Notes: generated from the letters alone by a model not told the origin. A stretch of DNA of 64,000 nucleotides from Escherichia coli O157:H7 (GCF_013167455.1 NZ_CP038328.1); one strand, 5' to 3'. Numbered from the stretch's first letter, positions 1,781 through 10,478 are shown. Made by a program: numbers and translations.

Positions 1781-2857
1781 ATGAAAGCACTGGCTCGGTT
1801 TGGCAAAGCCTTTGGCGGCTACAAGATGATCGATGTGCCACAACCCATTTGTGGCCCGGAAGATGTAGTGATTGAAATTAAAGCCGCGGCAATCTGCGGC
1901 GCAGACATGAAGCACTACAATGTCGATAGCGGTTCTGATGAGTTTAACTCTATCCGCGGCCATGAGTTCGCAGGTTGTATTGCGCAGGTTGGTGAAAAAG
2001 TCAAAGACTGGAAAGTGGGGCAACGCGTCGTGTCGGATAACAGCGGTCACGTCTGCGGCGTTTGTCCGGCCTGTGAACAAGGTGATTTTCTGTGTTGTAC
2101 AGAAAAAGTAAACCTTGGTCTGGATAACAATACCTGGGGCGGTGGTTTTTCCAAATATTGTCTGGTTCCTGGTGAAATTCTCAAAATTCATCGTCATGCG
2201 TTGTGGGAAATCCCTGATGGTGTTGATTATGAGGACGCAGCCGTACTTGACCCTATCTGTAATGCCTACAAATCCATCGCGCAGCAATCGAAATTCCTCC
2301 CTGGTCAGGATGTGGTCGTCATCGGCACTGGCCCACTCGGGCTGTTCTCCGTACAAATGGCGCGAATTATGGGGGCGGTAAATATCGTCGTCGTTGGTCT
2401 GCAAGAAGATGTGGCGGTCCGCTTCCCGGTTGCAAAAGAACTGGGTGCGACGGCAGTAGTAAATGGTTCTACCGAAGATGTGGTGGCGCGCTGCCAGCAA
2501 ATTTGTGGCAAAGACAATCTGGGACTGGTGATTGAATGCTCCGGTGCCAATATCGCACTGAAACAAGCCATCGAAATGCTCCGTCCGAACGGGGAAGTGG
2601 TACGCGTTGGAATGGGCTTCAAACCTCTTGATTTCTCGATTAATGACATTACCGCCTGGAACAAAAGCATCATTGGGCATATGGCCTATGACTCCACCTC
2701 ATGGCGTAACGCTATCAGGCTATTAGCCAGCGGCGCTATCAAAGTCAAACCGATGATCACGCATCGTATCGGCCTGTCGCAATGGCGCGAAGGGTTTGAT
2801 GCGATGGTCGATAAAACCGCAATCAAAGTGATCATGACTTACGACTTTGATGAATAA
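1781..2857 (+). CDS. ydjL: zinc-dependent medium-chain dehydrogenase (sugar/polyol dehydrogenase-like)
   Basis: 358-aa ORF; GHEFAG zinc-ligand motif, Cys cluster CGVCPACEQG, GTGPLGL nucleotide-binding motif. Confidence 0.85.
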   Translation: MKALARFGKAFGGYKMIDVPQPICGPEDVVIEIKAAAICGADMKHYNVDSGSDEFNSIRGHEFAGCIAQVGEKVKDWKVGQRVVSDNSGHVCGVCPACEQGDFLCCTEKVNLGLDNNTWGGGFSKYCLVPGEILKIHRHALWEIPDGVDYEDAAVLDPICNAYKSIAQQSKFLPGQDVVVIGTGPLGLFSVQMARIMGAVNIVVVGLQEDVAVRFPVAKELGATAVVNGSTEDVVARCQQICGKDNLGLVIECSGANIALKQAIEMLRPNGEVVRVGMGFKPLDFSINDITAWNKSIIGHMAYDSTSWRNAIRLLASGAIKVKPMITHRIGLSQWREGFDAMVDKTAIKVIMTYDFDE

Positions 2858-2883
2858 CCACTCTCCTGAAGGAACGTTATCGC

Positions 2884-4263
2884 ATGGATCAGATAACAAA
2901 ACCGCATTGTGGTGCACGGCTGGATCGCTTACCGGATTGCCGCTGGCATTCATCAATGTTTGCCATCGTCGCGTTTGGCTTGCTTGTCTGCTGGAGTAAT
3001 GCCGTTGGTGGCTTGATCCTCGCGCAGCTGAAAGCGTTGGGCTGGACAGATAATTCCACCACAGCCACATTCTCAGCAATCACGACCGCCGGAATGTTTC
3101 TCGGTGCGCTGGTGGGCGGCATCATTGGCGACAAAACCGGTCGCAGAAATGCGTTCATCCTCTATGAGGCCATTCATATTGCCTCGATGGTTGTCGGTGC
3201 TTTCTCACCGAATATGGATTTCCTTATTGCCTGCCGTTTTGTGATGGGAGTTGGGCTGGGAGCTTTACTGGTTACGCTGTTTGCTGGTTTCACCGAATAT
3301 ATGCCCGGTAGAAATCGTGGAACGTGGTCAAGTCGGGTTTCCTTTATTGGCAACTGGTCATATCCGCTCTGTTCATTGATAGCGATGGGACTCACGCCGC
3401 TGATTAGTGCAGAGTGGAACTGGCGGGTACAACTGCTTATCCCTGCAATATTGTCGCTTATCGCTACGGCGCTGGCCTGGCGCTACTTTCCTGAATCCCC
3501 GCGCTGGCTGGAATCGCGCGGACGGTATCAGGAAGCCGAGAAAGTCATGCGGAGTATAGAAGAAGGCGTCATACGCCATACAGGTAAACCTTTGCCGCCC
3601 GTGGTTATTGCTGATGACGGTAAAGCACCACAAGCGGTGCCATATTCAGCCTTACTGACAGGAGTATTACTGAAACGCGTGATATTAGGCTCTTGTGTGC
3701 TGATTGCCATGAACGTTGTGCAGTACACACTAATTAACTGGTTGCCAACGATATTCATGACCCAGGGGATTAATTTAAAAGACTCGATTGTTTTAAATAC
3801 CATGAGTATGTTTGGCACGCCATTTGGCATTTTTATTGCCATGCTGGTGATGGATAAAATTCCGCGTAAAACAATGGGTGTGGGGCTATTAATCCTGATT
3901 GCGGTGCTCGGATATATCTATTCACTGCAAACCAGCATGTTGCTCATAACGTTGATTGGTTTCTTCCTGATTACTTTCGTCTATATGTACGTTTGCTATG
4001 CCTCGGCAGTGTATGTCCCTGAGATCTGGCCGACAGAGGCCAAACTCCGTGGCTCCGGTCTGGCGAATGCGGTAGGGCGAATCAGTGGTATTGCCGCACC
4101 TTATGCCGTTGCAGTGCTGCTCAGTAGTTATGGCGTTACGGGAGTCTTTATTCTTCTGGGGGCGGTTTCAATTATTGTCGCAATTGCTATCGCCACCATT
4201 GGAATCGAAACCAAAGGTGTCTCCGTTGAAAGTTTAAGTATTGATGCAGTAGCCAATAAATAA
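2884..4263 (+). CDS. ydjK: MFS family transporter
   Basis: 459-aa ORF, multiple hydrophobic spans, MFS loop motif GDKTGRR. Confidence 0.85.
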   Translation: MDQITKPHCGARLDRLPDCRWHSSMFAIVAFGLLVCWSNAVGGLILAQLKALGWTDNSTTATFSAITTAGMFLGALVGGIIGDKTGRRNAFILYEAIHIASMVVGAFSPNMDFLIACRFVMGVGLGALLVTLFAGFTEYMPGRNRGTWSSRVSFIGNWSYPLCSLIAMGLTPLISAEWNWRVQLLIPAILSLIATALAWRYFPESPRWLESRGRYQEAEKVMRSIEEGVIRHTGKPLPPVVIADDGKAPQAVPYSALLTGVLLKRVILGSCVLIAMNVVQYTLINWLPTIFMTQGINLKDSIVLNTMSMFGTPFGIFIAMLVMDKIPRKTMGVGLLILIAVLGYIYSLQTSMLLITLIGFFLITFVYMYVCYASAVYVPEIWPTEAKLRGSGLANAVGRISGIAAPYAVAVLLSSYGVTGVFILLGAVSIIVAIAIATIGIETKGVSVESLSIDAVANK

Positions 4264-9002: not shown

Positions 9003-9119
9003 TTTAAGCACGCGTTGTCAATATTATTTGTTCCTGCGCCTGGAAATAAAATGATGATAAAGATGCGGCAAGTGAATTTGCCGCAATTGCTACCTTTTTT
9101 AGCAAATCCGAGGCACCCA

Positions 9120-10478
9120 ATGGAACAATATGATCAAATTGGCGCAAGACTGGACCGCTTGCCTTTGGCCCGGTTTCATTATCGTATATTTGGTATTATA
9201 AGCTTTAGTCTGTTATTAACAGGGTTTTTGAGTTACTCCGGTAATGTCGTCTTAGCAAAGCTGGTAAGCAATGGATGGTCAAATAATTTCCTCAATGCCG
9301 CCTTTACCTCGGCATTAATGTTTGGTTATTTCATCGGCTCTCTTACCGGTGGGTTCATCGGTGATTACTTTGGGCGGCGCAGGGCGTTTCGCATAAATCT
9401 TCTCATCGTCGGTATTGCTGCAACAGGGGCCGCTTTTGTCCCTGATATGTACTGGCTTATCTTCTTTCGCTTCCTGATGGGAACAGGAATGGGGGCGCTG
9501 ATTATGGTTGGCTATGCCTCATTTACGGAGTTTATCCCCGCGACGGTGCGTGGAAAATGGTCCGCGCGGCTCTCATTTGTTGGTAACTGGTCGCCCATGC
9601 TGTCTGCGGCGATAGGTGTGGTGGTTATCGCTTTTTTTAGTTGGCGGATAATGTTTCTGTTGGGTGGTATTGGCATACTGTTAGCCTGGTTTCTCTCAGG
9701 TAAATACTTTATTGAGTCGCCACGATGGCTGGCAGGGAAAGGGCAAATCGCAGGTGCAGAATGCCAACTTCGTGAAGTAGAGCAGCAAATTGAAAGAGAG
9801 AAGAGTATTCGTTTACCCCCGCTTACTTCGTATCAGAGCAACAGCAAGGTTAAAGTAATCAAGGGTACTTTCTGGCTCCTGTTTAAAGGTGAAATGTTAC
9901 GACGTACATTAGTCGCGATTACTGTTTTAATTGCAATGAACATTTCGCTTTATACCATCACCGTATGGATACCGACCATATTTGTTAACTCCGGCATTGA
10001 TGTCGATAAATCAATATTAATGACCGCTGTTATTATGATTGGCGCTCCGGTAGGAATATTTATTGCGGCATTAATTATTGATCATTTTCCTCGTCGGTTA
10101 TTTGGCTCCACCTTACTTATTATTATTGCAGTGTTAGGCTATATCTATTCAATTCAGACTACAGAGTGGGCGATTTTAATCTATGGCCTGGTGATGATCT
10201 TCTTTTTATACATGTATGTTTGCTTCGCGTCGGCGGTTTATATCCCGGAGCTTTGGCCAACGCATTTACGCCTGCGCGGTTCGGGTTTCGTTAATGCCGT
10301 CGGACGGATCGTCGCAGTCTTCACGCCCTATGGCGTTGCGGCATTATTAACACATTATGGGTCGATCACGGTGTTTATGGTACTTGGTGTCATGTTATTG
10401 CTCTGTGCGCTGGTTCTCTCCATTTTTGGCATCGAAACGCGGAAGGTGTCGTTGGAAGAGATTTCTGAGGTAAATTAA
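9120..10478 (+). CDS. ydjE: MFS family transporter
   Basis: 452 codons from the ATG at 9120 (MEQYDQIGARLDRLP...), which has a GAGG ribosome-binding site; the longer ORF-track form from 9015 is probably an artefact. Confidence 0.8.
   Translation: MEQYDQIGARLDRLPLARFHYRIFGIISFSLLLTGFLSYSGNVVLAKLVSNGWSNNFLNAAFTSALMFGYFIGSLTGGFIGDYFGRRRAFRINLLIVGIAATGAAFVPDMYWLIFFRFLMGTGMGALIMVGYASFTEFIPATVRGKWSARLSFVGNWSPMLSAAIGVVVIAFFSWRIMFLLGGIGILLAWFLSGKYFIESPRWLAGKGQIAGAECQLREVEQQIEREKSIRLPPLTSYQSNSKVKVIKGTFWLLFKGEMLRRTLVAITVLIAMNISLYTITVWIPTIFVNSGIDVDKSILMTAVIMIGAPVGIFIAALIIDHFPRRLFGSTLLIIIAVLGYIYSIQTTEWAILIYGLVMIFFLYMYVCFASAVYIPELWPTHLRLRGSGFVNAVGRIVAVFTPYGVAALLTHYGSITVFMVLGVMLLLCALVLSIFGIETRKVSLEEISEVN

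Follow-up and report, generated by a model that had tools for sequence, protein, structure and literature searches.

The ydj cluster of Escherichia coli O157:H7, a likely catabolic module for an acidic long-chain sugar that is probably broken at its kinase

The ydj locus of Escherichia coli consists of eight genes, ydjLKJIHGFE, located at positions 1781–10478 on the plus strand of a 64,000-nucleotide stretch of O157:H7 DNA (GCF_013167455.1, NZ_CP038328.1). This whole stretch is called the window below. We put the probability at about 0.8 that the locus is a catabolic module for an acidic long-chain sugar, which in the lineage of the window is probably broken at its kinase, YdjH. The cluster as such is textbook content of K-12 and is not a discovery. 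The additions made here are modest: a kinase lesion specific to the lineage, and the swapping of transporters across phyla.

The ydj locus of K-12 (b1776–b1769) has the same eight genes in the same order and on the same strand, with the same neighbours, yeaC and pncA. All eight products of the window are 97–100% identical to the K-12 proteins. Compared with K-12, the window shows a 15-bp deletion and two unusual substitutions in ydjH, and 13 lineage-specific changes from ydjK to ydjG. No stop codons or frameshifts are seen across the eight genes, and only ydjH, with its 15 bp missing, is not full length.

The deletion in ydjH is in frame. Its junction is at 6754/6755, and it removes DYLFP (K-12 residues 191–195), directly before the NXXE motif. 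YdjH is identical to the K-12 protein at 305 of 315 positions, and the deletion accounts for five of the ten differences. In an alignment of 80 YdjH orthologues spanning several phyla, the first and the last of the deleted positions are D and P in all 80 sequences, Y is seen in 78/80 and the second-last F in 79/80, and the middle position is F or L. No sequence has a gap there. The two substitutions are also unusual. R57C lies at a site occupied by K or R in 74/79 orthologues, where Cys is never seen, and Asn is never seen among the orthologues at the site of I166N. AlphaFold models of the K-12 and the window forms were built with the same 33-sequence alignment. In the K-12 model, a strand (192–194) runs into a helix (197–204), with a local predicted local distance difference test score (pLDDT) of 91/97/97. 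In the window model this strand is lost and the local pLDDT is 72/69/56. The mean pLDDT is 88.3 for the window form vs 94.7 for the K-12 form.

The same junction occurs in 308 complete genomes, among them those of O157:H7, the sorbitol-fermenting O157 strain 493/89 and O55:H7 DEC5D. In other E. coli, the 85-bp form at the junction is complete. Because the deletion is common to O157:H7, 493/89 and DEC5D, its distribution suggests that it arose before O157:H7 itself.

The differences between the window and K-12 were polarised with Escherichia whittamii. The ratio of nonsynonymous to synonymous changes in the ydj genes is 13:26 on the window branch vs 1:28 on the K-12 branch (Fisher p = 0.0024). 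The flanking genes of the window show 0:17, against 13:26 in ydj (p = 0.0055). All 13 amino-acid changes of the window branch fall within ydjK to ydjG (2884–8107). Two of them are A312T in YdjK, at a site that is Ala in 59/60 orthologues, and A149T in YdjJ, at a site that is Ala in 79/81 orthologues; Thr is never seen at either. Several further changes in the operon are never seen among the orthologues compared (60–81). Judged from these substitution patterns, the nonsynonymous excess looks like relaxed constraint on the ydj operon in the O55:H7/O157 lineage.

The window is colinear with the genome of O157:H7 Sakai at ~99.98% identity, and the sole structural difference is the lack of IS629 in ydjE of the window. 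Sakai and EDL933 (ECs_2485–ECs_2476) have the same cluster DNA, at 100% identity and including the ydjH deletion, except for the IS629 that is inserted in their ydjE only. The ydjE gene of Sakai is annotated as a pseudogene. In ~275 genomes ydjE is split at the IS629 site, and the insert is IS629 or another IS3-family element in Sakai and in every genome examined. Most O157:H7 genomes carry IS629 in ydjE, and the window belongs to the minority without it. O157:H7 PV15-279 is like the window, with the ydjH deletion present and ydjE intact. Since the conserved DYLFP is lost, the strand is lost in the model, nonsynonymous changes are in excess and IS629 is found in ydjE, stepwise decay of the pathway may be the most economical reading. 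The deletion in ydjH would have come first, unusual amino-acid changes would have followed in the operon under relaxed selection, and IS629 would have entered ydjE later.

Several points weigh against a module broken in this way. The deletion is in frame in the 308 genomes, with no further truncation, as expected of a tolerated variant. YdjH retains N191-Y-A-E194 (NXXE) and G252-A-G-D255 (the GAGD anion hole), both in invariant alignment columns. The overall fold is still predicted for the window form, with a predicted template modelling score (pTM) of 0.90. Transcriptomes of Sakai show continued transcription of ydjH and ydjI, with joint changes of the two. With an intact frame, both catalytic motifs in place and ongoing transcription of the operon, some kinase activity is possible. 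The substitution counts are small, and the nonsynonymous excess could in principle reflect adaptation. Besides, the roles given below to YdjL, YdjJ, YdjG, the transporters and the YdjF operators are ones that we infer.

The retained frame and its stability in 308 genomes, the two motifs, the pTM and the transcription would all suit a cluster that is fully working, in which the preceding LSYV slides in for the lost strand and the five-residue deletion is tolerated. This is unlikely, given that the lost residues are conserved among 80 orthologues with no indel at this place, that the local model confidence collapses, that more substitutions unseen among the orthologues and a nonsynonymous excess have built up in this lineage, and that IS629 was later gained in ydjE. 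Taken together, sequence conservation and the models make a break at YdjH probable for the pathway of the O55:H7/O157:H7 lineage.

The 2019 characterisation of YdjH and YdjI comes from two Biochemistry papers by Huddleston, Raushel and colleagues, which are summarised in PMC9602453. According to this summary, long-chain monosaccharides that end in a carboxylate are the preferred substrates of both enzymes, and the in vitro preference of the ydj system is for 7–9-carbon sugars with a carboxylate terminus. In the K-12 work as summarised, YdjH phosphorylates C1 of 2-ketoses bearing a terminal carboxylate, and YdjI splits L-glycero-L-galacto-octuluronate-1-phosphate in a retro-aldol reaction to dihydroxyacetone phosphate (DHAP) and L-arabinuronate. 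The K-12 RefSeq names are L-glycero-L-galacto-octuluronate kinase for ydjH and L-glycero-L-galacto-octuluronate-1-phosphate aldolase for ydjI. These names and the summary agree with the pointer to long-chain uronate-type ketoses in vitro that was given in the preliminary description. The summary also states that no natural abundance is known for the best YdjI substrate and that the functions of the operon are "only partially determined" (PMC9602453). The physiological substrate had been called unassigned. This still holds, as a full-text literature search, from which the unrelated ydj genes of Bacillus subtilis were set aside, gave no paper assigning one. The 2019 paper on YdjI reportedly found that a terminal phosphate is also accepted.

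Based on these activities, the following route can be proposed. YdjK and/or YdjE would import an anionic polyhydroxy compound. The sorbitol-dehydrogenase-like YdjJ and/or YdjL might oxidise a secondary alcohol of it to yield a 2-ketose, in parallel with sorbitol, L-idonate and L-galactonate dehydrogenases. YdjH would phosphorylate this 2-ketose at C1, and YdjI would cleave the ketose 1-phosphate into DHAP and an aldehyde-acid, as is known for the K-12 proteins. The aldehyde-acid fragment might then be reduced to an aldonate by YdjG. YdjF may repress the ydjL and ydjF promoters via TCTGTG-containing elements until a phosphorylated pathway intermediate binds, and CRP and Rho may be further layers of control. 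The logic of import, oxidation, phosphorylation and cleavage that had been read from the gene content stands, but the pathway, which had been called complete, is doubtful here, with a segment of the kinase missing and constraint relaxed in the lineage.

The family labels that had been given to all eight products are supported by profiles, motifs and matches to solved structures. The closest relatives of YdjL are L-threonine 3-dehydrogenases by homology. Among solved structures, YdjJ matches PDB 5VM2 best (E 2e-236), followed by ketose reductase and sorbitol dehydrogenase. Both have the motifs of zinc-dependent medium-chain dehydrogenases: GHE at 60, CxxCxxCx7C at 92 and GxGxxG as GTGPLG at 182 in YdjL, and GHE at 64, CxxCxxCx7C at 95 and GxGxxG as GAGCIG at 176 in YdjJ. 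Their scores are below the equivalog cut-offs, with Tdh best at 217 and 201 bits (cut-off 380) and IdnD at 175 bits (cut-off 469). The two proteins share the fold of L-threonine 3-dehydrogenase, sorbitol dehydrogenase and L-idonate 5-dehydrogenase, and an equivalog function is not supported by the profile scores. YdjI scores 324.4 bits against TIGR00167 (cut-off 215.6) and matches PDB 6OFU over residues 1–278 (E 6e-187). Its sole difference from the K-12 protein is H16R. YdjH has the ribokinase fold and matches PDB 3H49/3IN1 (E 6.5e-195). YdjG scores 624.5 bits against the NCBIfam equivalog NF049922 (cut-off 550). YdjF has an N-terminal HTH_DeoR domain (PF08220, E 5e-17) and a C-terminal DeoRC domain (PF00455, E 4e-49). 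YdjK and YdjE are paralogues, 44% identical to each other. YdjE matches MFS_1 (E 6e-36) and Sugar_tr (E 2e-35), and YdjK matches several subfamily models of the major facilitator superfamily (MFS) at E 1e-42 and weaker. The NCBIfam model nearest to both is that of the aromatic-acid:H+ symporter subfamily.

A scan with YdjI, using one genome per species, found 80 loci, and 58 of them are outside Enterobacterales. These 58 loci belong to Lachnospiraceae, Oscillospiraceae, Clostridium, Veillonella, Megamonas, Anaerococcus, Erysipelotrichaceae, Atopobiaceae, Synergistaceae and Gilliamella. Firmicutes, Negativicutes, Actinobacteria and Synergistetes are thus represented. The carriers are mostly gut-associated and mostly anaerobes. 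The gene order L-(K)-J-I-H-G-F is kept. The identities to the proteins of the window are unusually high, at 73–87% for YdjI, 69–87% for YdjL, 54–80% for YdjJ, 45–72% for YdjH and 57–69% for YdjG. Of the 58 loci, 56–58 encode the five enzymes and 49 encode YdjF. Contamination of metagenome bins with E. coli was considered for the Firmicute clusters and rejected: the identity is 74–87% and not 100%, the neighbours differ, and cultured isolates are among the carriers. Schaedlerella arabinosiphila DSM 106076, Clostridium puniceum DSM 2619 and Lachnotalea glycerini DSM 28816 are cultured and carry the cluster on large scaffolds.

The transporters are more variable. An MFS transporter is found in 38/58 loci, and ydjK is absent in 20. 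A symporter of the SDF family (DctA/GltP-like) is seen in 31/58, often after ydjF, at the place of ydjE. In one Synergistaceae locus, an SDF-family symporter stands in place of ydjK. Twelve of the 58 loci, all without ydjK, have a Liv/Urt-type ATP-binding cassette (ABC) system, with a Peripla_BP_6 protein directly after ydjF. The alternative types occur in place of the MFS transporters or together with them. Their families are known for transport of carboxylates and amino acids and, as far as family membership tells, this fits the carboxylate preference of YdjH and YdjI. An AlsE-like ketose-phosphate 3-epimerase, absent from the E. coli locus, is present in 32/58. No further accessory gene (glycoside hydrolase, lyase) is conserved beside the cluster in the 58 loci. 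Apart from the added epimerase and the swapped transporters, these clusters have the same enzyme set and order as ydj, and no characterisation of any of them was found in the literature search.

In one Lachnospiraceae locus (L024), a divergent set of paralogues is located directly upstream of the main cluster, at 107–4790. It includes a YdjH-like (39%), a YdjG-like (33%) and two YdjJ-like (50% and 26%) proteins. This set hints at a family of related pathways.

A different substrate, namely a neutral or phosphate-terminated sugar or alditol of 7–9 carbons (a heptose, heptitol, sedoheptulose or octulose phosphate), should also be weighed. The aldo-keto reductase and the two polyol-type dehydrogenases would form a classic reductive/oxidative trio, the solved relatives of YdjJ include arabinitol and xylitol dehydrogenases in addition to ketose reductase and sorbitol dehydrogenase, and the AlsE-like epimerase in 32 loci is also in line with such a sugar, as is the terminal phosphate that YdjI reportedly accepts. 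A substrate of this type is nevertheless improbable. As summarised in PMC9602453, both YdjH and YdjI prefer a carboxylate terminus. The alternative transporters are of the SDF and Peripla_BP_6 types rather than sugar ABC systems or phosphotransferase systems (PTS), and YdjK and YdjE come nearest to the NCBIfam model of aromatic-acid:H+ symporters. The corresponding route, from aldose through alditol and 2-ketose to ketose-1-phosphate as in fungal oxidoreductive pentose pathways, is similarly doubtful. An acidic long-chain sugar is preferred here.

A role of the locus mainly in stress defence, either detoxification of methylglyoxal and other aldehydes or tolerance to acid or osmotic stress, is very unlikely. 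It is true that YdjG reduces small aldehydes, methylglyoxal among them, with reduced nicotinamide adenine dinucleotide (NADH) (PMC6561318), that overexpression of ydjK led to better growth in high salt (cited in PMC6561318), and that ydj genes are over-represented in lactic-acid-resistant isolates (PMC9602453). However, the link with acid resistance tracks the phylogroup (PMC9602453). The kinase, the DHAP-forming aldolase, the transporters and the DeoR repressor, in an order kept across phyla, represent a catabolic layout, and the activation by CRP that is predicted in the literature for ydjLKJIHG suits the use of a carbon source.

The module resembles known pathways of E. coli in part. The gat and aga tagatose-bisphosphate pathways likewise have a class II zinc aldolase of TIGR00167 (GatY/KbaY) with DHAP as a product, a kinase-made phosphate ester next to the keto group and a DeoR-family repressor (GatR/AgaR). 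Unlike them, ydj relies on MFS transporters in place of a PTS and includes two dehydrogenases together with an aldo-keto reductase. Its kinase phosphorylates free ketoses at the C1-OH, and its preference in vitro is for carboxylate-ended C7–C9 sugars. The routes for L-idonate (IdnD) and L-galactonate (LgoD, also called YjjN) likewise use zinc-dependent medium-chain dehydrogenases. Aldonate 5-dehydrogenases oxidise the penultimate carbon to give a keto-uronate, which is the class of compounds accepted by YdjH. LgoD performs this oxidation of an aldonate. IdnD is among the matches of both YdjJ and YdjL, well below the equivalog cut-off. Downstream, the IdnD and LgoD pathways continue with reductases and the Entner-Doudoroff route, whereas ydj continues with a kinase and an aldolase.

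The ydj stretch is present in 4335/5426 complete E. coli genomes by megablast, with the best matches, at 100%, in O157:H7. A query of the joined flanks found them directly adjacent in 1092 of the 5426 (20.1%). The cluster is reportedly found in ~80% of E. coli genomes in the 2019 papers on the enzymes, which agrees with the megablast count. In the O26 strain RM10386, which is cluster-free, yeaC and pncA are separated by only 160 bp. Homology to cluster-free E. coli ends at position 1409 of the window and resumes at ~10513. Because the breaks fall at these two points, the upstream region and the eight genes are gained or lost together, as a 9.1-kb block (1410–10512). At 46.5%, the G+C content of the block is lower than that of the remaining window (49.9%). 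In Citrobacter, Klebsiella, Raoultella, Yokenella and other Enterobacterales, the cluster is also present and its downstream neighbour families are sized like ansA and sppA. If the context in these Enterobacterales is the same, loss would be the simplest explanation for why part of E. coli lacks the cluster.

The gaps between the genes, in the order from ydjL to ydjE, are 26, 16, 20, 4, 9, 136 and 117 nt. The short gaps of the preliminary description hold for ydjL to ydjG (4–26 nt) and not for the spaces before ydjF and ydjE. Two other details had to be changed. The overlap of ydjI and ydjH was an artefact of taking the longest open reading frame (ORF), which starts with ATG at 6164. The start annotated in Sakai and K-12 is at 6185 and leaves the 4-nt gap. 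For ydjE, the TTG start at 9015 was replaced by the ATG at 9120, which yields 452 amino acids as in K-12. The contiguous arrangement of the eight genes on one strand is confirmed by the ORF scan and by the annotations of both strains.

Generic scans of the region found 12 promoter-like matches vs 16.6 expected and 15 terminator-like ones vs 10.2, neither above the shuffled expectation, so we relied on conservation across genera. Upstream regions from 15 Enterobacterales loci were aligned for a phylogenetic footprint. The control block upstream of ydjL contains the conserved TTTGTGATCTGAGTTGT(A/G)AAA, and TGTGA is found at 1659–1663. A palindrome at 1671–1702 folds at -17.8 kcal/mol and holds ATCTGTG at 1689–1695. 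It is followed by a predicted promoter conserved in the 15 loci, with the -35 box TTGACC at 1712–1717 and the -10 box AAGTAT at 1735–1740. The ydjF promoter, with the -35 box TTGAAA at 8177–8182, a 17-nt spacer and a TG-extended -10 box GATAAT at 8200–8205, is the best promoter-like match of the region (10/12 positions plus TG) and is conserved across Enterobacterales genera. Upstream of it are the conserved elements CTCTGTTTCTGTG and AAATCTGTGATTCA, with ATCTGTG at 8154–8160. ATCTGTG has 6 copies in the window and is not enriched, and 2 of the 6 are just upstream of the -35 boxes of ydjL and ydjF, a pattern noticed after the fact. The canonical CRP palindrome TGTGA-N6-TCACA was looked for at both promoters, and only good left half-sites were found, the right halves being poor. 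ydjF is a CRP target in systematic evolution of ligands by exponential enrichment (SELEX). YdjF may use the conserved TGTGA/TCTGTG elements as operators, which would include its own autoregulation, and CRP half-sites may overlap with them.

The gap between ydjF and ydjE contains the conserved hairpin TGCGGCAAGTGAATTTGCCGCA, whose arms show paired base changes (CGGCAAG/TTTGCCG vs CGGTAAA/TTTACCG). It could be a terminator, an attenuator or an inverted repeat bound by a protein. The operon is described in the literature as ydjLKJIHG (PMC6561318). Based on this description, the ydjF promoter and the hairpin between ydjF and ydjE, the locus probably has about three transcription units and is probably not the single eight-gene operon that the preliminary description had implied. 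Transcription of all eight genes from the ydjL promoter would agree with their common strand, with the lack of a convincing intrinsic terminator after ydjG and with the gain or loss of the eight genes as a single block in E. coli. It is still quite unlikely, in view of the published limits of the operon, the near-consensus extended -10 promoter that is conserved across genera in the 136-nt gap, and the position of ydjE, 117 nt further and behind a conserved hairpin. Outside Enterobacterales, ydjE is usually missing or replaced. In a promoter library of K-12, the ydjL promoter was among the two most consistent triggers that respond to the mouse gut (PMC6561318).

Table 1. Features of the ydj locus in the window and examples of syntenic loci (aa, amino acids; coordinates of the last three rows are those of the respective loci)
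Feature	Position	Strand	Description
ydjL	1781–2857	+	Zn-dependent medium-chain dehydrogenase, 358 aa; 1 residue differs from K-12
ydjK	2884–4263	+	MFS transporter, 459 aa
ydjJ	4280–5323	+	Zn-dependent dehydrogenase of polyol/ketose-reductase type, 347 aa
ydjI	5344–6180	+	class II Zn aldolase, 278 aa; 277/278 residues as in K-12
ydjH	6185–7117	+	pfkB-family kinase, 310 aa (K-12: 315 aa)
ydjG	7127–8107	+	aldo-keto reductase, annotated as NADH-dependent methylglyoxal reductase, 326 aa
ydjF	8244–9002	+	DeoR-family regulator, 252 aa, GTG start
ydjE	9120–10478	+	second MFS transporter, 452 aa, intact; 452/452 residues as in K-12
ydjL upstream region	1410–1780	+	includes left edge of presence/absence block; conserved control block at ~1655–1740
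ydjG-ydjF intergenic region	8108–8243	+	conserved promoter (scan and footprint across 15 loci)
hairpin in ydjF-ydjE gap	9064–9085	+	conserved across Enterobacterales genera
IS629 site within ydjE	9216–9222		empty in the window; occupied in Sakai and EDL933
GC-rich hairpin between convergent ydjE and pncA	10531–10561		~18 nt inside resumed homology (~10513)
L037 (of the L024–L082 set)	5300–15810		syntenic ydj cluster
L053 (of the L024–L082 set)	6334–17857		syntenic ydj cluster
L063 (of the L024–L082 set)	2098–8497		syntenic ydj cluster

In Sakai and K-12, the cluster is flanked by msrB-yeaC upstream and pncA-ansA downstream. A repeat search found nothing beyond the paralogy of ydjK and ydjE and chance pairs, and Rfam gave no match in positions 1–12000 of the window at E <= 0.1. 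The ORF at 12371–13183 (minus strand), between ansA and sppA, corresponds to the putative lipoprotein ECs_2473 of Sakai. K-12 has no annotated gene at this position, and its gap between sppA and ansA is only 166 bp. At ~58700–60600 (minus strand), between thrS and ydiY, colinearity with Sakai places espL1 (ECs_2427), which resembles effectors of the type III secretion system.

Among the orphan carbohydrate pathways of E. coli, the ydj pathway is a comparatively well-known one, with three proteins structurally solved and two enzymes characterised. With a kinase that is probably defective and an operon that looks relaxed, O157:H7-type sequences are unsuitable as its functional reference. The clean deletion in 20% of E. 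coli, the kinase lesion and the IS629 insertion can serve as genotype markers for ydj-dependent fitness. The pairing of the enzymes, across phyla, with transporters of carboxylate and amino-acid types and with a binding protein narrows the class of substrates. It can be speculated, at somewhat less than even odds, that ydj is a horizontally shared, gut-associated catabolic unit for an anionic (carboxylate) compound, which was abandoned by the O55:H7/O157:H7 lineage. If this is true, the Peripla_BP_6 binding proteins and the SDF symporters found outside Enterobacterales would offer a direct route to the natural substrate, and the O55:H7/O157:H7 pathogen lineage would differ from commensal E. 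coli in its metabolic niche.

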